Assembly: GCA_964373815.1 (NCBI GenBank)
Contig: CAYJWI010000001.1
Location: 7,885-71,884, forward strand
DNA from: an uncultured archaeon
GTDB lineage: Archaea; Iainarchaeota; Iainarchaeia; Iainarchaeales; Iainarchaeaceae
Length of the DNA: 64,000 bases
Reading direction: 5' to 3'
How positions within the stretch are numbered: the stretch's first letter is position 1; every line of letters begins with the position of its first letter. Shown here piece by piece: positions 4,298-56,281 of the stretch. Below the pieces are notes generated by a model, which worked only from the letters and a program-made list of their open reading frames with translations, searched no databases and was not told the origin of the DNA. The translations under genes and the position numbers were made by a program.

Positions 4298-4407
4298 CGG
4301 ACCCGGGGGGATTTGAACCCCCGACCACCTGCTAGCTTCCCTTTTCCGCTAACCTTTTTGAAAAAGGCTAGAAGGCAGGTGCTCTATCCAAGCTGAGCTA
4401 CGGATCC
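4298..4407 (-). tRNA. tRNA-Arg(UCU) with a 35-nt intron after position 37
   Basis: The minus strand reads GGATCCG-TA-GCTC..GAGC-A-CCTGC-CTTCTA[intron]A-GCAGG-TGGTC-GGGGG-TTCAAAT-CCCCC-CGGGTCC-G. All four stems pair. Length is 110 nt, 75 nt mature. Confidence 0.8.
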
Positions 4408-22338: not shown

Positions 22339-22512
22339 ATTTTCCACTGCCCCGCAAGGGGCAAAAGCTTTTATTTGGATTAACCCAAGATTAGGGCATA
22401 TGTCCGGAAGGGCAACTATTCCCATTGGGCTGGTTTTTCTGGCAGGCGGGAAATGCATCTAAACAGGGGCATGTTCTGATGTCATTCCACGCTTCTGAAG
22501 CTTTTTCAACAA

Positions 22513-23209
22513 TTGCGCTTTTCATCCCCCCTGCTCGTCTCGTTTTTTGTCTGGCGAAAAATAAATTCAAGCACGGAAAAACTAGGCTTTGCGGAAAGCA
22601 GGAGAAAATCAATTTCCATTGTTTCCGGGGTTTTGCTTTTCGGCTGGTTTTTTGCCGCTTTTGCCATCGCATTGCTCGGCCTGTTCCATGTCAGTTCAAG
22701 CTTTTTTTCCCCGCTGGTCCCCCTAGCGGTGGTTCTCTGCGGCATCGCAGTGGTGGCGTTGGTTCTTTTTTCCAGCACCATGAAACAAATCATCGGCTTG
22801 CTCCCACAGCGCTGGCTCATCTCATTGCAGCTATACAGGGTCTTGGGGGTTGTTTTTTTTGTGGCAGCTCGAGGCCGGCGCATTGCCAGCAATGTTTGCA
22901 ATCCCGGCAGCCTATGGTGACATCATCACCGGCCTCGCCGCGCCCATTGTCGGGTACGTTTACCTGAAAAAAATCCCATTTTCAAAAATTCTCGCCGTGG
23001 TTTGGAATGTCTTCGGCATAATTGACATCACTATGTCCATATGCCTCGGAATCCTGCTGGTTTTCCCAGCACCGTTCCAGCTTGTGGCTGTGTCCCCCAC
23101 CACTGAAATAATGACCATGTTCCCGATGGCCCTTGTTCCCGTCTACGCGGTGCCGCTCGCGTTCATGCTCCACGCGTTTTCGCTAAAAGGCCTGCTTGCG
23201 GAAAAGTGA
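22513..23209 (+). pseudogene. polytopic membrane protein interrupted at a T8 homopolymer
   Basis: ORFs 22513..22920 and 22850..23209 are both hydrophobic and change frame at the T8 run 22853-22860. A single T gain or loss would join ...YRVLGVVFF to WQLEAGALPAMFAIPAAYGD. Confidence 0.4.
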
Positions 23210-23259
23210 GTTTTTAGCCGCCGGGGAGAGCGACAGAAGCGTATGCGGGCAGTTCAAAT

Positions 23260-23622
23260 CTACAATTGTTTTTTCTCTTCGTTCTTTTTCATCCGGGCTT
23301 TGACAAGCTTCTTTATGAGAGCGACGGGGAGCTTTTTGTCCAGCGGAAATCGGACTGTTGCTTGGAAAGTTTCATAATCAGCCAGTTCCTTTTTGTGCTC
23401 CTCTATACTTGGGGTTGGTAAATAGAGCCCGATATGCGCTTTCGCGAGGGCGAAATAAGCCAGCCGCCCCTTGTAGGCATAGTACGGCATCCCATAACTG
23501 ATGCGCTCCGCGGCTGCCGGTGCGGCTTTTTTGATAGCCACCCGGAGCTCCCTAAGTTTGCCCTGCACCTCTTTCGGCGCCCTCGCAATGTATGCGTCCA
23601 CGTCTTTTGATGTTTTTTCCAT
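23260..23622 (-). CDS. DUF1801 (YdhG-like) domain protein
   Basis: 120-aa ORF. VDAYIARAPKEVQGKLRELRVAIKKAAP..ERISYGMPYYAYKGRLAYFA..VRFPLDKKLP. Confidence 0.7.
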   Translation of the reverse strand: MEKTSKDVDAYIARAPKEVQGKLRELRVAIKKAAPAAAERISYGMPYYAYKGRLAYFALAKAHIGLYLPTPSIEEHKKELADYETFQATVRFPLDKKLPVALIKKLVKARMKKNEEKKQL

Positions 23623-23714: not shown

Positions 23715-23725
23715 CGCGGAGGACG
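23715..23725. repeat. distal att core (displaced copy of the tRNA-Ser(UGA) 3' end)
   Basis: cgcggaggacg is identical to 25635-25645 and to the genuine tRNA 3' end at 28217-28227. Confidence 0.7.
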
Positions 23726-23803
23726 GAAGATACTACAATCAGTTCAAATCTAGCCTCTGTGGGAATTGTAGAGCAAAGCTCATTTAAACGTGGAAGTTTG
23801 GCA

Positions 23804-25228
23804 TTAAAAGTCTTCCAAATCGTATGCTAGGTATCCTTCGTTTTTTATTTTTTGCTTGTTTTCAATGTGCTTTGCCACTATTCCGCATTTTACAGTGGTT
23901 AGTTTTTTGTTCAAATGGCCGGTTTTGCTTTCAAGGGTTTTCAAAATGCCGAGCGTTTCCTTGTATGACAACTCTTTCCATTTAAATTCGAAAGCGTAAA
24001 AGTTTTTTCCGTCTTTAGCTATACAATCTATTTCGTAGGCGTTTTCGCCTTTTTTTGCCCCGTGTATTGTGCCCCATTGCCTTTTTGCCTCTTTTAAGCC
24101 GAGCTTGTTTTTGAGGAATTCTTTTGCGGGGTTTTCAAAGGCCTTTCCGTAGGTGCTGTTCAGGTTGTTTTTGAGGTTTTCAATGAATTCCGGTTTTCTT
24201 GCGGCATAATCCGAATAATTCTTGTATATTTGCGAGAACCAGAATTGAATCAGGGGGTGTTTTATTTTGTAGATTCCCCTTTTTCCCTCGAATGGCATTT
24301 CGAATTCAATCAGTTCGAAGTAGTCCCTGAGTTCTTTTATTTGCCTTGTGATTGAGGTGGGGTTTATGTTCATTGTGCCTGCGATTGTGGATATGGTGTT
24401 GTTTCCGTTCGCTATTGCCTCTAAAATGGAGTAGTATACTCCGCTTCTTCCGCCGAATTCTTGGGATAGTATGCTGTTTACTTCATCTTCCAGTGCGGCG
24501 CCTTTTGAGAGCAGTAATGAATCCAGTATTTCCGCTGTTTTTTTCCCTTCCAACCTGAAGTCCTCAATTGAAACGAAGTATTTTGGGTATCCGCCGAAAA
24601 TGCAGTAAAATTTTACCAGTTCCTCCTTGTCAAGCTTCAATTCTTTTGCAAGTTCCAGGCATGAATTCACACTTAGGGCTTCGAGCTTAATCCCTTTCTT
24701 TATCCTTCCGTATAGGGCTTCTTTGGAGTTTTTGAACAGGTTCTTCATCAGTCCTATCAATGAGCCTGAGAGAATCACGAGCCCGGGGTTGTTTTCGTTC
24801 AAATCAATGTTTTTTTGCATTATCCCGAAAACTGCGGGTTCTACAAAACCAAAATTCTGGAATTCATCAAAAACCATTGGGGGGGAGTTCCTTTTTCCAA
24901 GAACTTCAAAGAACTTGTCCCAGGAATCCACACTTTCGAGTTCTCCCAAAATATTGCTTTTTCTCAAAATTTCCTGAAATTCTGCCAAGAGATCATTTGA
25001 TGTCTTGCTCTTGTTCACAAAAAAATACAAGCCGTCTTTTCCATAACCATGCCCCGTTCCATCAACAGAACCGTGGCCAGAACCTATTACGCGAAGAAAT
25101 TCAAATAAAAGCCTAGTTTTTCCAACCCTTCGTAGGCCATACAAAGCCACGACAAAAAGCTTTTTGCGGGAAAGCGCTTCAATTTCATGGAGTTCTTTTA
25201 GTTCCGCAACCCTGTCCACAAACTTCAT
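23804..25228 (-). CDS. archaeal-type AAA ATPase with C-terminal DUF234 (PD-(D/E)xK-like) domain
   Basis: 474-aa ORF. Walker A-like LYGLRRVGKTRLL, Walker B-like PPMVFDEFQ, wHTH region, and C-terminal YEIDCIAKDGKNFYAFEFKW. Confidence 0.8.
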   Translation of the reverse strand: MKFVDRVAELKELHEIEALSRKKLFVVALYGLRRVGKTRLLFEFLRVIGSGHGSVDGTGHGYGKDGLYFFVNKSKTSNDLLAEFQEILRKSNILGELESVDSWDKFFEVLGKRNSPPMVFDEFQNFGFVEPAVFGIMQKNIDLNENNPGLVILSGSLIGLMKNLFKNSKEALYGRIKKGIKLEALSVNSCLELAKELKLDKEELVKFYCIFGGYPKYFVSIEDFRLEGKKTAEILDSLLLSKGAALEDEVNSILSQEFGGRSGVYYSILEAIANGNNTISTIAGTMNINPTSITRQIKELRDYFELIEFEMPFEGKRGIYKIKHPLIQFWFSQIYKNYSDYAARKPEFIENLKNNLNSTYGKAFENPAKEFLKNKLGLKEAKRQWGTIHGAKKGENAYEIDCIAKDGKNFYAFEFKWKELSYKETLGILKTLESKTGHLNKKLTTVKCGIVAKHIENKQKIKNEGYLAYDLEDF

Positions 25229-25401
25229 ATATATTCACCAACTGAATTATTCAGTGACTGAATACATATTTAAACTTATCTTGGGCTAAAAATCGTTACA
25301 TTTTTGTAACGAAAATGGCTTATTTTGTTACACTTTTGTAACGCTTGTATCTGTTAAACAGATAATATATAAAGCCGGCGAATATATGCCAAATTCTGGT
25401 A

Positions 25402-25554
25402 TCAGAAATCTGCTAAGCTCCGTTGTTTCTCGTTTGTGCCACTTTGGATTTTGGCCTTGACTGTATTTATGCATTGCCGGCCCCTTTTGTGCATGTCATA
25501 CTCCTGATCGAATACCGAGAAGTCGAATTGCTCTTGCTTTGTAATTTCTTGCAT
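25402..25554 (-). CDS. 50-aa ORF sharing its promoter and first 34 codons with 27945..28136
   Basis: The N-terminus MQEITKQEQFDFSVFDQEYDMHKRGRQCINTVKA is encoded inside the 194-bp repeat, and the sequence diverges afterwards. Below the track size cut-off. Confidence 0.35.
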   Translation of the reverse strand: MQEITKQEQFDFSVFDQEYDMHKRGRQCINTVKAKIQSGTNEKQRSLADF

Positions 25555-25645
25555 TTTTTGGTTCCCCGAAAGATTATAGTCCTCCGCTAACGTGGACGCT
25601 TATTATACTTTCGGATTCGAACTGAATGCATACTCGCGGAGGACG
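25452..25645. repeat. 194-bp exact direct repeat, copy 1 (element right arm plus att core)
   Basis: Identical to 28034-28227, offset 2,582 bp at both ends. Confidence 0.9.
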
Positions 25646-25881
25646 TAAGATACTACAATCAGTTCAAATCTATCTCTTTGTCATATACCTATAGCGATGT
25701 TTTTTTAAGAGCTTTTGAGAAAGTTCGGCTTTCGATGGTAAAAACTGCCCGAATTTTGCGTGTGGGTTTTTGCCCTAAATTGAACATTTTTAATCTTATC
25801 CACAGGGATATGATATAGTGGGGTTCTGCTTTGGGGGCAGTTATATTAACCTGAAAATGCCTTTTAAGGGTTGATTTGACT

Positions 25882-26817
25882 ATGCAGGGTGAAGAGACGG
25901 CGCAAACTGTCAGGGGCTTGTTAATTGCTATTGCGGAGATTGATGAGCTCAAGAGGGGCGGCAAGGCCTTTTTATCCGAGACGTGGTTTCATAAGCTGCT
26001 CTATGATTTGAAGCGGCGAGTTGATGATAGGGAAATTAAGGGTGCGCTCCAGTTCTATTGGTATATCCACGGCCCTTTTTCTGAGGACGTACGCTACGAG
26101 CTGCAAACCTTGGTCGAGGAGAAAGTTTTTGAATCTAATTCGACTTTCAGCGGCAACGCTTACCGATTGAAGGTAAAGCCCAAGAGGGCTGAGTCAAAGG
26201 GTCTGGTTGTTGCAGGAAAGGTTTTGAAACAGATTTATGCGGAAATCAATCCTTACAATTTGAAGTCTTTGATGAAGACGATTTATTTGGAGGCCCCTTA
26301 CAAGTTCATGCCACAGTATAAATTCAGTTATTTGGATGGCCTCAAGGATTTGAAGATGTTTATCGAACAAGATGAGAGCAAAAAATTCATAGAGGAGTAC
26401 AAGGCTAAAGTAATTGACAATCTTTATGAAGCTGAAATCCTCCTGCCATCACACAAATTATACGCCACTTACAACCAAGTTTTTGGGAATATGGTTGGAG
26501 AAATAACTGCCCTATTGGCTCTATCCGACCAGCATGGCATTTATGCTATTGAAAGTGCCATCAAACTTAGTGAAGAAGCTTGGGAGTGTTTTGCAAAGGG
26601 CGTGAGGATAGAAAATCATGACCCTGCATACGCCCACAGAAAAGAGGCGTGGGGTAAAAATTTTGAAGACTCTCTAAGCGGGTTTGCTAATATGCTAGCA
26701 CTATTCAGCCAACAGCAACTAAAAAACATGAGTGGTTACACAACAAAAACAACCCAAGAGCCGCCCCATTCAATAGGAGTCATGCGTGCAATTGTCTTGG
26801 GTTATCTCAATGAATGA
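25882..26817 (+). CDS. hypothetical protein with a weak Panacea/DUF4065-like N-terminus
   Basis: About 311 aa. WFHKLLYDL...YWYIHGPFSEDV resembles the DUF4065 core. The rest is helical with no motif. Overlaps the downstream PIN-like gene by 8 nt. Confidence 0.45.
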   Translation: MQGEETAQTVRGLLIAIAEIDELKRGGKAFLSETWFHKLLYDLKRRVDDREIKGALQFYWYIHGPFSEDVRYELQTLVEEKVFESNSTFSGNAYRLKVKPKRAESKGLVVAGKVLKQIYAEINPYNLKSLMKTIYLEAPYKFMPQYKFSYLDGLKDLKMFIEQDESKKFIEEYKAKVIDNLYEAEILLPSHKLYATYNQVFGNMVGEITALLALSDQHGIYAIESAIKLSEEAWECFAKGVRIENHDPAYAHRKEAWGKNFEDSLSGFANMLALFSQQQLKNMSGYTTKTTQEPPHSIGVMRAIVLGYLNE

Positions 26818-27523
26818 AAACAAGGAGCACTTTCTGGACACAAGCGTAATGCTTGCTAGGGTTACTTACTGGAAGCCCGAGGACGCGCATAGGAACGCGA
26901 AGAAGTATTTTCTGGATTCGCGCTACAACAAGTGCACCAGCATTCGCGTTGTCGGGGAAGCCAAAGGGGTAATGAACTCATCGAGGCAGGTTATTGGAAA
27001 GGCTTTGCTCTGGCTCTTTGAGAACCAGTCCGGCATGTCTGCTATGAATTTTGAGGGCTGGGCTGTACGCGCAACTAGTGGCTTGTTCGACAGGCCTTTT
27101 GAGCAGAGGATTTGCAAATCGTTCATCCAGAACTGTGGCCCGGATATACTTTCGGCTATTTCGGGAAGCAGGGAAAACCTTGACCAGTTCCTTGGGAAAA
27201 TCCGTTCCGAGATTGGGCACAGCTACAATGACTTGCAGACCTTGTGCGCGAACAACCCTGGGTCGGCAATTGCAAGGCATGATGACTGTCCTGTAACCTA
27301 CACCTCCATGTACTCGGGCGAATTCCAGGCTATATCTACTGCCCTGAACCACGACAAGGATTCTCTCATAGTGATGGATTCATACTTCGTTTCAAAGAAA
27401 ATCCGGCAGCGGGTTTCCCTGGTTACGCTTGACAGGGAGCACATGCTCTCAAACAAAGCCAAAATAGAGGCTGCCCTTTCAACCGTAAAGGTCTGCGATT
27501 TCGGCGCTTACCAGTCTCAGTAA
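26810..27523 (+). CDS. PIN-like domain protein
   Basis: Start taken at MNENKEH. FLDTSVM (first acidic residue), VVGEAKG, VMDSYF and LVTLDREH give PIN-like spacing of acidic residues around a large helical insert. Confidence 0.45.
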   Translation: MNENKEHFLDTSVMLARVTYWKPEDAHRNAKKYFLDSRYNKCTSIRVVGEAKGVMNSSRQVIGKALLWLFENQSGMSAMNFEGWAVRATSGLFDRPFEQRICKSFIQNCGPDILSAISGSRENLDQFLGKIRSEIGHSYNDLQTLCANNPGSAIARHDDCPVTYTSMYSGEFQAISTALNHDKDSLIVMDSYFVSKKIRQRVSLVTLDREHMLSNKAKIEAALSTVKVCDFGAYQSQ

Positions 27524-27948
27524 TCGTTTTCTCCTGTCTGGTTCGCGTTCCATTCAATCCGCTTTATTACCGGATATTTTGGCCGACCATACGGCTTGCG
27601 TTTGCGCTTTTCCCGGCGCTCCGGAATGCTTACAGCTTCACCATCTTCGAGAATAAATTTTCCGATGCAGGTTCTTTTTCCTGCCTTGCTTCTCCATGGT
27701 TTGAGGTAGTATCTTTCCTTTCGTTGGTTGCTGTAAGCGTACTGTGGCCGGCCCACTTTATTTTTCCGATTCTTTCTTTTTTGCGTATAGCTCGCATAGC
27801 AATAGCTCCAGAGGTAGTAAACCCCGTCTGGAAATTCTCCGAAGGTTTGCTCGAGCCAGTTCCTGAAGTCGATTTTATCCGTCCATCGGTTCACTGGGAA
27901 ATCTTCGGGCGGAATTTCTGCGAGCGGGTTGCTCAAGTCAACCATCAT
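27517..27948 (-). CDS. highly basic hypothetical protein
   Basis: 143-aa ORF rich in K, R and Y (KRKNRKNKVGRPQYAY, ERREKRKRKPYGRPKYP). Start overlaps the upstream 63-aa ORF by 4 nt. Confidence 0.5.
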   Translation of the reverse strand: MMVDLSNPLAEIPPEDFPVNRWTDKIDFRNWLEQTFGEFPDGVYYLWSYCYASYTQKRKNRKNKVGRPQYAYSNQRKERYYLKPWRSKAGKRTCIGKFILEDGEAVSIPERREKRKRKPYGRPKYPVIKRIEWNANQTGENDY

Positions 27949-28136
27949 GGGCCAGCCGGATAGGTTCTTTGTTTTTTGAGTTGATGGGGGCGCCGGCCAT
28001 ACAAAGAGTCGATGTCAAGCCTGTTTTGTTCTATGGCCTTGACTGTATTTATGCATTGCCGGCCCCTTTTGTGCATGTCATACTCCTGATCGAATACCGA
28101 GAAGTCGAATTGCTCTTGCTTTGTAATTTCTTGCAT
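27945..28136 (-). CDS. 63-aa hypothetical protein
   Basis: Its N-terminal 34 codons and upstream region lie inside the 194-bp repeat. Translationally coupled to the basic protein gene. Confidence 0.45.
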   Translation of the reverse strand: MQEITKQEQFDFSVFDQEYDMHKRGRQCINTVKAIEQNRLDIDSLYGRRPHQLKKQRTYPAGP

Positions 28137-28227
28137 TTTTTGGTTCCCCGAAAGATTATAGTCCTCCGCTAACGTGGACGCTTATTATACTTTCGGATTC
28201 GAACTGAATGCATACTCGCGGAGGACG
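28034..28227. repeat. 194-bp exact direct repeat, copy 2
   Basis: Identical to 25452-25645. The last 11 nt are tRNA-Ser(UGA) positions 63-73. Confidence 0.9.
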
Positions 28228-28300
28228 AGATTCGAACTCGCGCCCCCTTTCGGGGACCTGGTCTCAAGCCAGGCGCGTTGGACCGCTCCGCCACCTCCGC
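28217..28300 (-). tRNA. tRNA-Ser(UGA), class II
   Basis: GCGGAGG-TG-GCG..CGC-G-CCTGG-CTTGAGA-CCAGG, variable arm TCCCCGAAAGGGGGC, GCGAG-TTCGAAT-CTCGT, CCTCCGC-G. 84 nt. Confidence 0.85.
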
Positions 28301-28410
28301 AATTTTTTTCTTTCTCTTGGGAAGAAAAGAAACCCTCACAAACATATGTTTGTGGGGCACAGCAGAATAAAAATTCTGCTGTGAAACGTTGATTAAAAAA
28401 GAAAAGAAAC
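28301..28410. repeat. tRNA-flanking polypyrimidine/polypurine element, copy 2
   Basis: TTTTTTTCTTTCTCTTGGGAAGAAAAGAAA (28303-28331) and AAACGTTGATTAAAAAAGAAAAGAAAC (28384-28410). Two strong hairpins lie between them, CCTCACAAACATATGTTTGTGGGG and CACAGCAGAATAAAAATTCTGCTGTG. Confidence 0.6.
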
Positions 28411-32767: not shown

Positions 32768-33055
32768 TTACCAATGTTTTGGCCCAAGGCCTGCGGCCCA
32801 TGAATTCCGGAAAATAAATGGCGCGGGGAATGAGCCACCAACCGTCTTTTTTATGCGCCCTATCGTGCTGTTTTTGGTTCGAAATACCCATAGGTTGTCC
32901 GGGTCGTTGTTGCCTTTGTCCCTGTCCATGTGGTGGACGACTTCGCCTCTTCTTAGTGGCCTGCTGAGCTTGTCTTCTGCGACCCATCTGTGTATTGGTG
33001 TTCCGCTGTCTGAGAATCTCCTGTACCCTTTCTTGTCATAATAGTAATCTGCCAT
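32768..33055 (-). CDS. HNH endonuclease
   Basis: 95-aa ORF with GEVVHHMDRDKGNNDPDNLWVF. The last ~18 codons lie beyond the putative element boundary. Confidence 0.7.
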   Translation of the reverse strand: MADYYYDKKGYRRFSDSGTPIHRWVAEDKLSRPLRRGEVVHHMDRDKGNNDPDNLWVFRTKNSTIGRIKKTVGGSFPAPFIFRNSWAAGLGPKHW

Positions 33056-33071
33056 TTTAAAACCTCCAAAT

Positions 33072-33539
33072 GTGATGGGTTTTCTAGGATTTTTATTTGA
33101 ATTGAGGGTTCGGTGCCGGTGCGGGATATGTATAAATATTGGGTTTGCTGATTGTTTTTTTATGGATGAATATTCAAAGATGAGGACGGCAGTGTTGCAA
33201 AGTGAACTAGAAAAACAACAGTTGCATCTTGGTATGATTTCGCTTAATTTTAATACAAATCAAGTTGGCACTCCTGCCGAGGCGGAGAGGTATGATAAGG
33301 GGATAATTCGCAGGATAAAAACGGTTTCCGGAAGGCTTGTTAGTATTCTTGAAGAATTGAGGGAAAGGAACCAGACAGTTAAAATTGCTAACCTTACACA
33401 TTGGCACCCGGTTGTACAGGTAACATTTGCAGCCAAATTAAGAGCCAGCAAGTACCCCCTAATTTCACAACTTGGACAAGGGGTCAAACCGATATTTACA
33501 AAGCACCCGAAGCTACCGCCGCATAACCGGAGATTTTAA
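33072..33539 (+). CDS. hypothetical protein
   Basis: 155-aa ORF, likely starting at the internal MDEYSKM. No motif recognised. Confidence 0.3.
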   Translation: MMGFLGFLFELRVRCRCGICINIGFADCFFMDEYSKMRTAVLQSELEKQQLHLGMISLNFNTNQVGTPAEAERYDKGIIRRIKTVSGRLVSILEELRERNQTVKIANLTHWHPVVQVTFAAKLRASKYPLISQLGQGVKPIFTKHPKLPPHNRRF

Positions 33540-33540
33540 A

Positions 33541-33786
33541 CTAATTTTTTTCTTGAAGCTTCTTCTCCAGTTCAATCATCATGCTAACCAGAATCACGTG
33601 CATGCTCGTAAGTTTGAGCGTGTCGAAGTGTTTGATTAACCGCGGGACAGAGAGACCGTTGAGCTTGTTGTATGTGTAGAACTTTTGAATGAGTTCTTTG
33701 TTCTCTTTGGACATTTCCAAAGTGGATTCGAGCCAGGCCAATCGCCTGGCCAAATCCCTTTCGTAGGAATGTATGTATTGTTTCAT
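33541..33786 (-). pseudogene. N-terminal fragment of a tyrosine-recombinase-type integrase
   Basis: 81-aa ORF. YERDLARRL..MSKENKELIQKFYTYNKLNGLSVPRLIKHFDTLK resembles the N-terminal SAM-like domain of archaeal integrases. No catalytic domain follows. It starts 63 nt from the tRNA 3' end. Confidence 0.45.
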
Positions 33787-33848
33787 GTTGAGTGCCCCCT
33801 ACTCAACCGTACTTTTTAAAAGGGCACCGACTTGAACTGTCGGTAGGA

Positions 33849-33932
33849 CGCGGGGAATGGGATTTGAACCCATGCTCCCGTGAAGGAACACGCTTTCCAG
33901 GCGTGCGCATTAGACCGCTCTGCCATCCCCGC
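33849..33932 (-). tRNA. tRNA-Ser(GGA), class II
   Basis: GCGGGGA-TG-GCA..TGC-G-CACGC-CTGGAAA-GCGTG, variable arm TTCCTTCACGGGAGC, ATGGG-TTCAAAT-CCCAT, TCCCCGC-G. 84 nt. Confidence 0.85.
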
Positions 33933-53005: not shown

Positions 53006-56000
53006 CTATCTTGCCTCTTTCACTGCTTTTTCAAATTCAGAATCCATTTCCACAATTATTCCTTCAATGCCCTTTTCGGCATCCTTTTCCGCGAGCTCCT
53101 TCATCCTCGCTATCTTCTCGCGCACCTTGAGCGCGGTAACAGCCTTTAGCTGCACCCCGAGTTCGAGCGCATCAACCGCCTTGTCATAGAAGCGCAGTAT
53201 TGCCTTGAGCATCCTGTACTGCTTCTTTAGGGATGAGAAAGCGTCGATGTCGCTGAACGCTGACTGCTGCAGGAAATCCTCCCTTAACATCCTTGTGGCA
53301 TCGAGCACCATCTGCTCCTTTTCAGGGAGCGCATCAGGGCCTACTAGCTGCACGATTTCCTGCAGCTCCGCTTCCTTTTGCAAAAGCGCCATGGCCTTTC
53401 CCCGGTTATCCGCCCAATCGGGTGCAACGAGGTTCGCGTAAGTCGCATCCAGCGAATTCGTGTACAATGAGTATGACTTGAGCCAGTTGATTGCGGGGAA
53501 GTGCCTTCTCTGCGCGAGCTTGGCATCAAGCGCCCAGAACACCTTTGTTACGCGCAAGGTGTTCTGCGACACAGGCTCCGAAACATCCCCTCCGGGAGGC
53601 GAGACCGCCCCGATGACTGAAATCGAGCCGTTCCTTTCCGGTGAGCCCACACAAACAATTCTTCCCGCCCTTTCGTAGAACTCTGCGAGCCTTCTTGCAA
53701 GGTACGGCGGATACCCCTCTTCACCCGGCATCTCCTCAATCCTTCCCGAAATTTCCCTCATCGCTTCCGCCCACCTTGAAGTGGAATCCGCCATGAGCGC
53801 GACATCATAACCCATGTCCCTGTAGTATTCCGCAATCGTTATTCCTGTGTAAATGGACGCTTCCCTTGCAGCGACCGGCATGTTGGAGGTGTTCGCTATA
53901 AGCACGGTCCTCTGCATGAGCGGCTTTTTGGTCTTCGGGTCCACGAGTTCCGGGAATTCCGTCAGCACTTCGGTCATCTCGTTGCCCCGTTCGCCGCATC
54001 CGATGTAGACGATTATCTGCGAATCGCTGAATTTTGCGAGTGACTGCTGTGTCACAGTGTTGTGCAAAAGCATAGGCTGGTTGCCTGAAATAAAATTGTG
54101 TGTTTCTGGCACAGTGAGGTCGTAGACGTACTGTTCGGAATTTATTTCCCTGATTTGTGTTATTTTATCGCAGAATACGTCCTCTAATGACTGTGCAAAC
54201 TCATAGAGCCTTCCTTCAATTCCCAGCTTTTCCACTATTGACTGGAATGTCGTGGAGGTTTGGTTGAGTTGCTTGTAGTATGCGATTGTGGATACTCCCT
54301 TTTTCTGCAGTTCCCACGGTTTGATTCCTTCAAGTATTTCCCTAAATAATTCTGGTGTCATGGGGACAATGTCTTTGGACGTATAATAATGCTTTTTCTC
54401 ATAATATGAATCGATTTTATTTGCCTCTTTTGGAGCAATAAAGATTCTGTAATATGTTCCTTTTGCGGTGTTTTTGACCGCGCAGGTGTGGAGTATTCCC
54501 ATTTTTGTGAGAACATATGAGAGGCCAGTCTGCATTTTATGTGATGCAGAAGTGATTTCCGCATCATTCTCACCGATATGGCCATCGCCCTTGATGTATG
54601 CTTTCAGGAAAGCTTTGCACACTGCGTTCGGTGATGTGAGGAGTTGTTTTGGCACTCTCACGTTTCTGGACTTCTTTATGAATGGGAAGCCCATTGAATT
54701 GAGGAATTTTGCCAAAGAAGCGTGGTTAACGCTCACGGCCCAAACGGTGTTTGCGTAGATTTCTTTTGAATCGAGGTTGAATATTTTTTTCAGGAGGAAA
54801 GAAACCCTTTTCCGAAGCTCCTTGTCATTGTTGTAGAATTCTACCACTTTTTTATCTTTTATGCTTCCTTCAGCCATTAGGAAGCCAAGGAATTCCGCAA
54901 GCTCCTCATCTAGGTATTTTGGGAGGCTGATTGGCTTTGATTGCCTTTGGGCCTTGATTTCGCTGAATTCAATTTCCACCCCACTTAGTGTCATTAGGCT
55001 TTTCAGAAAACTTAGGGTTGGTTTGTTGGTTTCGGAGTAAAATGCTGACATTGTATGCTTTGGAACCCCTAAAAGTATTCCAAGTTCTTTTCTATCCATG
55101 CCCCTTTTACTGCATTCTTGGTCTATTACCGATTTCATCTTTTTTAGGGCTTTGGCATCAGTTATCCTGCAGTCAAAGTCCACGGCCAATTTTTGGGTTT
55201 CCCCACTGAACGGGATTTTTCTTGGAGATATTATATAGTCGCCTTCCCTTAATTCCTGTGAAGGCGTTTCTTCTATCCCAAGCTTCTCGTTTATCCTAAA
55301 TAACTTGTGCACTGGTGTTACTTGCACTTTTCTCCCGCTGCGGGTCTTCACTTCAATCATTTTGTCTGTCTTTCCCCTGTAAAGTGTTGTGGCAAGCGTA
55401 TCGGTTATTTCTTTGCCATTAAATGTATACACTTTTAGAGGCTCTTTTAGATTAATTATTGTTTCATAATTATTTTCTTCAATTGAATTGGCCTTATTAT
55501 CCTCCTCTGCTTGGAATATCTCCTGAATTGGCCTCAGTTCGTCATTTGCCAGCACAATTGTATTGCCGTCTATGCATTTCCCAGAACCAAATGGCCCTGG
55601 TATCGCCGCTGTCCCGCCTTTTGAAATCGGGAAGAACGTGTCAAGTATTCTCTGTCCCGTGATTAGCGGGGTATTTGGCGGGAATTTTTCGGCATAGGGC
55701 CTCGGTTTTCTAACTTCCCATCTCTGGAGCATCTGCACTTCGCGCTTTTCCCTGCCGTCCTTTATCACCGCAATTGTTTCCTCTATTGTGAAACTGCCCT
55801 TGCTTATTTCCATGACTTCCCCGGAAATTCCGTGCGGCACCATTATCTTGTGAAGTATAATGCCAGTTTCCTGGACTTCGCCGAGGATGTCGCCTCCAGC
55901 GACCTTCTCGCCCCTCTTCGCTTTCGGCGTGAATGCCCACTTCTTTTCCCTGCTAAGCGAATTCGCGACAACCCCGCGGGCGATGAAGCTTCCGCTCTTT

Positions 56001-56281
56001 GCCATTATTGCATCAAGCGGCCTTTGTATCCCATCATAAACCGATTCAAGCAATCCGGGCCCCAGTTCAACCGTGAGGGGAAGCCCCGTGTTCTCGACAG
56101 GCTGGCCTGGCTTTAGCCCTGATGTGTCCTCATAGACCTGGATGGTTGCTCTATCGCCATTTAGCTTGATTATTTCGCCGATAAGCTTCTCCTTTCCAAC
56201 CTTTACGACGTCATACATTTTCGCCCCCGCCATTTTCTCCCCAACAACTACGGGTCCGACTATTTTTTGCAATTCTCCCAT
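53006..56281 (-). CDS. atpA: A-type ATP synthase subunit A, intein-containing precursor
   Basis: 1091-aa ORF. The exteins (235 + 350 aa) reconstitute GPFGSGK|[37 protein letters not shown]. Confidence 0.9.
54059..55576 (-). mobile_element. 506-aa intein with LAGLIDADG homing endonuclease domain in the AtpA Walker A loop
   Basis: Begins CIDGNTIVL directly after GPFGSGK. Block B TPVH. LAGLIDADG motifs [14 protein letters not shown] and [13 protein letters not shown]. Ends [23 protein letters not shown], followed by the Thr +1 residue. Confidence 0.85.

Follow-up and report, generated by a model that had tools for sequence, protein, structure and literature searches.

A composite island at tRNA-Ser(UGA) of a DPANN archaeon, probably formed by two unrelated integrase-deficient modules with a common attachment site

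The present study concerns a composite island at the 3' end of a tRNA-Ser(UGA) gene in an uncultured archaeon. The window, that is, the whole stretch of DNA that was analysed, comprises 64,000 nt and corresponds to positions 7,885-71,884 of the forward strand of contig CAYJWI010000001.1 (assembly GCA_964373815.1). The host is a DPANN archaeon, Iainarchaeota/Diapherotrites-like, and the closest relatives of the ribulose-phosphate epimerase encoded next to the island come from uncultured archaea labelled Diapherotrites or Iainarchaeum. The island is made up of two units, E1 and E2, which have different genes in the interior and the same attachment (att) sequences at the ends. Our data indicate, with a probability of about 0.6, that E1 and E2 are unrelated, integrase-deficient modules which retain their att sites, in the manner of cis-mobilizable elements (CIMEs), and which have been stacked at tRNA-Ser(UGA) by site-specific recombination. 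The parts of the island are as follows.

23715-23725, plus strand: core copy 1, attL (host flank / core / E1 left end)
23726-25645: E1, 1,920 bp including one core, G+C 0.401
23726-23752: E1 left end, 27 nt, first base G
25452-25634: E1 right arm, 183 bp, same sequence as the E2 right arm
25635-25645, plus strand: core copy 2, hybrid site (right arm / core / E2 left end)
25646-28227: E2, 2,582 bp including one core, G+C 0.456
25646-25672: E2 left end, 27 nt, first base T
28034-28216: E2 right arm, 183 bp
28217-28227, plus strand: core copy 3, attR, the end of tRNA-Ser(UGA)
28217-28300, minus strand: tRNA-Ser(UGA), intact (Rfam, 59 bits; 28216-28301 by ARAGORN)

The core is formed by the last 11 nt of tRNA-Ser(UGA), which read CGCGGAGGACG on the plus strand and in the Rfam register comprise the discriminator, the 3' acceptor strand and 3 nt of the T stem. 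It is present in three exact direct copies in the window (0.01 expected). A preliminary description of this DNA, made from the letters alone, had placed the same string at the same three positions, and the exact-repeat search agrees with it; the periods of 1,920 bp and 2,582 bp were confirmed as well. It had also reported a 194-bp exact repeat of arm plus core, and it was found that 25452-25645 is indeed identical to 28034-28227, with an abrupt left edge of the identity. The left ends, said to begin with g or t, differ in that first base only, the remaining 26 nt being identical. The attachment module common to E1 and E2 is therefore about 221 bp long (183-bp arm, 11-nt core and 27-nt left end). 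Within the right arm lie a P box, a TATA-like box, the first 34 codons of a small open reading frame (ORF) and the first 7 codons of an orphan gene of E2. The sequence of the hybrid site at core copy 2 is identical to the attP of a circular E2. The layout of attL, hybrid site and attR, the implied attP and the intact regenerated tRNA were borne out by the repeats and the tRNA calls, and the impression that both units are more A+T-rich than their surroundings holds when measured, as the flanks of the island have a G+C of 0.527 and 0.534.

Outside their ends, E1 and E2 share just short matches at chance level. A plain segmental duplication is ruled out because the interiors are unrelated. A more elaborate version of this explanation would be that a single element was duplicated by unequal crossing-over or slippage between the 11-nt cores, that one of the two cargoes was later replaced and that the arms were kept alike by gene conversion. 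An exchange between cores would yield exactly the arm/core/left-end junction that is observed, and no occupancy polymorphism was seen. On the other hand, the replacement would have to run from codon 8 of the arm gene to the 27-nt left end and spare both att parts, homologous exchange is inefficient on a repeat as short as 11 nt, and the two left ends carry different bases beside the core, as expected of two distinct elements. Such a history is possible but contrived, and we consider it unlikely.

On both sides of the core, a 15-nt box was found in inverted orientation.

23736-23750, minus strand: inverted box GATTTGAACTGATTG in the E1 left end, 10 nt from the core
25614-25628, plus strand: box GATTCGAACTGAATG in the E1 right arm, 6 nt from the core
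25656-25670, minus strand: inverted box in the E2 left end
28196-28210, plus strand: same 15-nt box in the E2 right arm

In the window the box GATTYGAACTGAWTG occurs four times (0.05 expected), in every case at an end of E1 or E2, and in the arm/core/left-end configuration the copies to the left and right of the core face in opposite directions. Over its first 10 nt (GATTCGAACT), the arm box equals the T-loop region of the tRNA at 28229-28238, which starts 1 nt past the core. From this likeness, the boxes could be binding sites of a recombinase that mimic the T-arm.

The second line of evidence comes from the other tRNA-Ser gene of the window, where a shorter element, E3, is integrated.

32768-33055, minus strand: HNH_3 endonuclease ORF, crossing the left junction of E3
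32822-33859: E3, 1,027 bp, between the CGCGGGGAATG copies at 32822-32832 and 33849-33859
33072-33539, plus strand: 155-aa ORF
33541-33786, minus strand: truncated tyrosine integrase, an 81-aa ORF adjoining the tRNA
33849-33932: tRNA-Ser(GGA) (Rfam)

The last 11 nt of tRNA-Ser(GGA), CGCGGGGAATG, are repeated once, 1,027 bp away, and have the same sublocation as CGCGGAGGACG, namely the discriminator, the acceptor strand and 3 nt of the T stem. E3 is A+T-rich (G+C 0.439). The first ~60 residues of its 81-aa ORF are 89% identical to the N-terminus of P0003, a protein with a Phage_integrase domain whose gene lies immediately 3' of a tRNA-Ser(CGA) and whose arm is almost identical to the E3 arm. E3 is a decayed integrated element of the ordinary kind, because it holds an integrase remnant, has the layout of the integrase family described below and is bounded by CGCGGGGAATG. 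It is thus a decayed, integrase-bearing sibling of E1 and E2 at the other tRNA-Ser gene.

The relatives of P0003 form a large family of tyrosine integrases of ~400 aa with a C-terminal zinc ribbon, which is frequent among DPANN genomes; the sources are annotated as Diapherotrites, Micrarchaeota, Iainarchaeum and some methanogens. Where a tRNA gene is present, the integrase gene lies directly 3' of it (Ser-CGA, Ser-GCT, Leu, Asn, Thr, Arg and Val); elsewhere it comes after a partial 3' fragment of a tRNA. The arm of the family has a constant layout, in which the end of the tRNA is followed by 9-10 nt, a GTTCGA-like box, a TATA-like TTTAAA, TTTCGGTTGAGGA and the ATG. No distal att sites of full-length members were found within the contigs examined. 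The gene of P0003 itself, the closest relative of the E3 integrase (contig L017, 1842-3816, and also L018), is truncated, a DDE_Tnp_1 transposase gene having inserted into it. Integrases of the zinc-ribbon family appear to decay often.

Several features favour a connection of E1 and E2 with this family. They are located at the equivalent 11 nt of a tRNA-Ser paralogous to that used by E3, their arm has a GTTCGA box at the offset typical of the family (9-10 nt after the end of the tRNA), and it shares the AGTAT following the core with the arms of L021 and L030. A profile of family arms also matches the E2/tRNA junction, albeit at E=0.025, and the gene next to the E2 arm has a homologue on an 8.7-kb element (L004) with a zinc-ribbon integrase. 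Decay from an autonomous element is seen for E3. E2 and E1 may have arisen in the same way, E2 sharing one gene family with the integrase-bearing L004 and E1 sharing the att module. By analogy with E3, it would be the same integrase family that acted on E1 and E2.

Contig L008, from a related genome, is syntenic with the window on both sides of the island. Its gene order is TrmB, aminotransferase, tRNA-Ser(GGA), a 795-aa gene, a 276-aa gene, epimerase, tRNA-Ser(UGA) and, farther on, an H+-pyrophosphatase (83% identity). The tRNA-Ser(UGA) of L008 has the same 3' end, followed by neither a core repeat nor an element, and E3 is lacking too, as there are 30 nt from tRNA-Ser(GGA) to the end of the 795-aa gene. 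The search for empty sites in related genomes suggested by the preliminary description was hence successful, both tRNA-Ser sites being unoccupied in L008; this is a different species, and the difference is not a strain-level polymorphism. Between the tRNA and the pyrophosphatase gene, the gene content differs between the window and L008, as expected of an insertion hot spot.

The proposed mechanism is conservative and site-specific. An element with an attP of arm, core and left end would recombine with an attB of flank, core and tRNA inside the 11-nt identity. The first insertion would regenerate the tRNA and leave a core copy at each end; a second element with the same attP would then recombine into one of the resulting att sites, giving the hybrid arm/core/left-end junction. 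The product would be flank/core/left end 1, arm/core/left end 2 and arm/core/tRNA, with the cargoes in between. The enzyme would most probably be a tyrosine integrase of the zinc-ribbon family, the one that left its truncated copy in E3, and for E1 and E2 to move again, a virus or plasmid in the same cell would have to provide a related integrase in trans. The G and the T next to the core would fit two distinct donors. The preliminary description had proposed successive insertion of two members of one element family by site-specific recombination. The recombination part is strengthened by the use of the same 11-nt sublocation and the truncated integrase in E3, by the empty sites of L008 and by the inverted boxes, whereas for the successive insertion of mobile units no circular or variant junction was seen in three read sets. 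The order in which E1 and E2 were inserted, and their mobility at the present day, are matters that we infer.

The genes carried by E1 and E2 are listed below.

23804-25228, minus strand: E1 cargo, 474-aa ATPase (ATPase_2 + DUF234)
25402-25554: small ORF, E1 copy, 50 aa
25876-26817, plus strand: E2 cargo gene 1, 313 aa, weak PADLOC matches to PDC-M19A and DarG
26810-27523, plus strand: E2 cargo gene 2, 237 aa (245 aa from a GTG at 26786), weak PIN-like match
27517-28056, minus strand: E2 orphan-fold gene adjoining the arm, 143 aa from the first ATG (27948)
27945-28136, minus strand: small ORF, E2 copy, 63 aa

The match of the E1 ATPase to PADLOC PDC-S27 is nearly full-length (residues 2-374 of 474 with E=4.9e-29, residues 2-447 with E=6.7e-28), and on the basis of this similarity the protein is a defence candidate. 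Upstream of its gene, at 25295-25343, the palindrome GTTACAYTTTTGTAAC occurs twice, 32 nt apart, and looks like a putative operator pair. Genes 1 and 2 of E2 form a two-gene operon, the start of gene 2 overlapping the stop of gene 1. This operon had been read by eye as a Panacea/PIN toxin-antitoxin pair, a reading that did not survive, as Pfam gave PIN with E=0.22 at most and no Panacea. The two proteins had no match in NCBIfam and none in a phmmer search against PDB sequences, and a single-sequence AlphaFold model of the 237-aa protein was unusable (pLDDT 36). The small ORF has its first 34 codons within the shared arm, and no homologue of it was detected. A scan for sigma-70 promoters and terminators gave no more sites than in shuffled sequence, the sigma-70 model being inapplicable to an archaeon, and an Rfam scan found tRNAs alone.

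The gene next to the E2 arm deserves a separate description. Its family is rare, 1.84 billion proteins containing 17 representatives, and consists of proteins of 130-220 aa with invariant Y, R and K residues and a very basic C-terminal half, for which there is no Pfam match. A 13-sequence AlphaFold model of a relative, P0002 (L004, 6857-7435), is confident (pLDDT 80, pTM 0.72), and the predicted fold has no match in PDB or BFVD. The E2 gene is 45% identical to its homologue on L004, the 8.7-kb element mentioned above, which encodes a related zinc-ribbon integrase. In E2 the homology extends 10 codons upstream of the first ATG (27948), a TGA at 28015-28017 then breaks the frame, and still farther upstream, within the shared arm, there is another ATG (28054-28056). 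The gene looks N-terminally degraded, since this TGA closes the frame upstream of the first ATG; the interruption is the same in two other read sets. It had been thought, by eye, that the in-frame TGA replaces a conserved Trp, and this idea was dropped, as the hidden Markov model of the family leaves the first 26 residues unaligned. E1 keeps just the first 7 codons of this reading frame.

Profile searches with Pfam, PHROGs, PADLOC and NCBIfam detected, as far as their sensitivity goes, no recombinase or transposase in E1 or E2, and tblastn with 99 integrases found none either, in agreement with the preliminary description, which had recognised no recombinase in the two units. Profile searches also gave no transfer genes in E1 and E2, and no integrase was seen among the neighbouring genes between 16.9 and 36.7 kb. 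A split integrase of the SSV type was rejected too, because circular permutations of E1, E2, E1+E2 and E3 give no long ORF spanning the junction. Integrases from the same samples as the window were looked for, and P0006 and P0015 trace to other samples.

It could be argued that the modules are autonomous after all, by an unrecognised recombinase that acts on the 221-bp site. The candidates would be the 313/237-aa pair, the orphan-fold protein and the product of the 34-codon arm ORF. Full elements have their integrase gene where the orphan gene lies in E2, and in the same orientation; the family of the orphan gene is rare, with the invariant Y, R and K and with a confident fold that matches nothing in PDB or BFVD. 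This is very improbable, however: E1 is without all these genes and has an identical att site, the orphan gene of E2 is interrupted or cut at its N-terminus, its homologue on L004 coexists with a normal integrase, and none of the libraries searched gave a signature of a recombinase or transposase. E1 and E2 are most likely non-autonomous derivatives that rely on an enzyme supplied in trans, as they share just the sequences required in cis, perfectly conserved around unrelated cargo.

The reality of the arrangement was examined with Logan unitigs (k=31) from ERR4904390, ERR4904391 and ERR3478686, which are runs of two projects. The unitigs of all three runs reproduce every junction with 100% identity to the window, and they end exactly 30 nt into the repeat, as a k=31 graph does at a real repeat. 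One unitig (L001) contains the host flank, attL and E1 and ends 30 nt into the arm; another (L002) begins with the last 30 nt of the arm, continues through the hybrid junction and E2 and ends 30 nt into the next arm. Exact-protein look-ups placed a DUF1801 protein beside E1 in all three runs. An artefact or chimera of assembly with no biological repeat behind it is scarcely credible. The sequence does come from a metagenome bin, and exact repeats are a classic source of misjoins, but all junctions, attL and the hybrid site included, recur at 100% identity in independent runs of two projects.

The unitigs support each junction and not the order E1, arm, E2, arm, tRNA. The graph consists of flank, E1, arm, a loop of E2 plus arm, and tRNA, and it fits a tandem and an integrated E1 with a free E2 circle equally. 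In the latter case E1 alone would be integrated, the assembler would have threaded in E2 as a free 2.58-kb circle, and the hybrid junction would be the attP of an episome. The k=31 unitigs end at both arm borders, so that the graph agrees with either solution, and the arm/core/left-end sequence is by definition the same in both. We regard the free circle as rather unlikely. The true tandem is more likely, since the deposited 80-kb contig crosses both copies of the 194-bp repeat, which usually needs read-pair support, since E2 has no recognisable replication gene or function and since the gene adjoining its arm looks degraded.

If units of this kind were still moving, particular junctions would be expected. 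A circular E1, or the product of E1 excision, would give ...CATACT-CGCGGAGGACG-GAAGATAC, which is unique owing to the G; E2 alone would give GTTTCTCGGA-CGCGGAGGACG-TAAGATAC and the empty site GTTTCTCGGA-CGCGGAGGACG-AGATTCGAAC. The arm sequence that would mark a helper zinc-ribbon integrase upstream of it is AGTATGCATTCAGTTCGAATCC. The preliminary description had pointed to circular junctions, empty sites and single-occupancy variants as signs of mobility, and in the unitigs of the three read sets none of them was found.

This absence is one of several observations that weigh against stacking of modules by site-specific recombination with a trans-acting integrase. An intact cognate integrase is absent from the 64-kb window, E1 and E2 hold no trace of an integrase gene in the tblastn search, and the gene adjoining the E2 arm is not an integrase. 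The arm profile built from 11 family arms, with E3 and its near-twin L017 left out, matched the E3 arm at 2e-10 and the E2/tRNA junction at E=0.025, part of the latter score coming from the T-arm of the tRNA; the TTTCGGTTGAGGA leader part of the family arm is unmatched in E1 and E2. The 22-nt arm/core junction had 0 matches in viral, genome and metagenome contig collections. The connection of E1 and E2 to the family is well motivated and is drawn by analogy. Furthermore, the degraded gene next to the E2 arm points to a fossil and not to an active element, and the 100% identity of the arms could be the result of gene conversion between neighbours and not of recent insertion. The intact cores and boxes would argue for continued movement of E1 and E2; the degraded arm gene, the lack of a variant junction in three runs and the lack of a helper in the window argue against it.

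A bolder proposal would be a live class of att cassettes in DPANN archaea, each consisting of a ~220-bp attP module and 1-3 cargo genes of defence type, moved in trans by zinc-ribbon integrases of co-resident viruses or plasmids. In that case tRNA-Ser would accumulate swappable cassettes in an integron-like manner, and the orphan-fold protein may be a directionality or accessory factor. This is possible, and we put it forward tentatively, with considerable doubt.

Some features in the surroundings of the island are worth recording. The left-end motif CAGTTCAAATCTA has a third exact copy at 23250-23262 on the plus strand (0.00 expected), 490 bp to the left of the E1 copy, and shares bases with the stop codon of the DUF1801 gene (23260-23622, minus strand). 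The 25 nt preceding this copy (region 23225-23262) are ~50% like core plus left end; the motif is perfect and the core beside it decayed. The copy may be a relic of an older insertion, E0, which carried the DUF1801 gene. Between the DUF1801 and pyrophosphatase genes, at 22425-23209 on the plus strand, two membrane-protein ORFs of 180 aa and 119 aa overlap in different frames; they may be one frameshifted gene in the variable interval beside the island. In a Diapherotrites metagenome-assembled genome (L010, 3093-3207), tRNA-Ser(UGA) has a second copy of its last 21 nt, 94 nt downstream and with no intervening gene, which looks like a tiny relic or a minimal integration footprint at the same tRNA. 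Farther away in the window, Rfam finds a 110-nt tRNA at 4298-4407 (minus strand, 56 bits) that ARAGORN misses; it presumably has an intron, and no second copy of its 3' end is present in the window. The gene of an A/V-type ATPase catalytic subunit (53006-56281, minus strand) contains an intein of ~500 residues with a LAGLIDADG domain, at protein residues ~242-741. A protein of the RelA/SpoT type (HD_4 + RelA_SpoT + TGS) is encoded at 31-1716 on the minus strand, and the contig also has a bacterial-type S-adenosylmethionine synthetase; both are unusual for archaea.

Compared with known systems, E1 and E2 come close to the CIMEs, which together with tandem accretion at tRNA genes were defined for the ICESt1/ICESt3-related islands of streptococci (PMC5704250). 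Like CIMEs, E1 and E2 are without integration genes and keep attL and attR, and they are stacked head to tail at the 3' end of a tRNA gene, as if one had recombined with an att site that was already present there (PMC5704250). They differ from the streptococcal CIMEs in their archaeal (DPANN) host, in the very small size of the modules (1.9 and 2.6 kb) and in that no functional integrase element is accreted to the array within the window; moreover, neither has an integrase, and their unrelated cargoes are nevertheless enclosed by one and the same perfectly conserved att module. Arrays of integrated elements that arise when tyrosine recombinases re-use one site are described for archaea as well (PMC6563490). 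The tandem occupation of one target, a tRNA gene or an intergenic site, with direct att repeats is common to those arrays and to E1 and E2. A small cryptic integrated element whose genes are listed in that source (2.6 kb) carries its own integrase, unlike E1 and E2, a comparison confined to that one element (PMC6563490).

The nearest annotated relatives of the family to which the E3 remnant belongs are the integrases of archaeal pleomorphic viruses (33% identity over 92%), haloarchaeal tailed viruses and haloarchaeal plasmids, and they include those of Geoglobus acetivorans pleomorphic virus 1, ThalV2 and Halorubrum virus BJ1. We take the integrases of these viruses and plasmids to be of the non-SSV kind, the gene staying intact on integration. 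In contrast to them, the DPANN family has a conserved arm layout of its own and a C-terminal zinc ribbon, and unlike the elements that encode them, E1 and E2 have no trace of any integrase. In SSV-type integration, known from Sulfolobales, attP lies inside the integrase gene, which is split when the element integrates. E1 and E2 resemble this type in their integration into the 3' part of an archaeal tRNA gene, but the joined ends of E1, E2, E1+E2 and E3 restore no long ORF. In layout alone there is a likeness to the cassette arrays of integrons, with short promoter-poor or self-contained cargo units, one recombination site each, at a fixed chromosomal site. An integron is ruled out, as neither intI nor attI is found beside the array, and the sites are double-stranded, attP-like and anchored at a tRNA. 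We prefer to describe E1 and E2 as non-autonomous derivatives of ordinary integrase elements, and not as members of a new class. The kind is already known; what is new is the DPANN setting, the very small size and the combination of the same att module with different cargo at one tRNA-Ser gene.

The finding implies that both tRNA-Ser genes are landing pads in small DPANN genomes. Genes of defence type arrive there in very small modules bounded by att sites, which island finders seeded with an integrase would miss. The island defines a testable 221-bp attP and its attB, and it points to a candidate family of integrases. Should E1 and E2 prove to be moved by an enzyme acting in trans, bacterial CIMEs and satellites would have a counterpart in archaea, and such modules would offer a simple route for the exchange of defence genes among ultra-small archaea.

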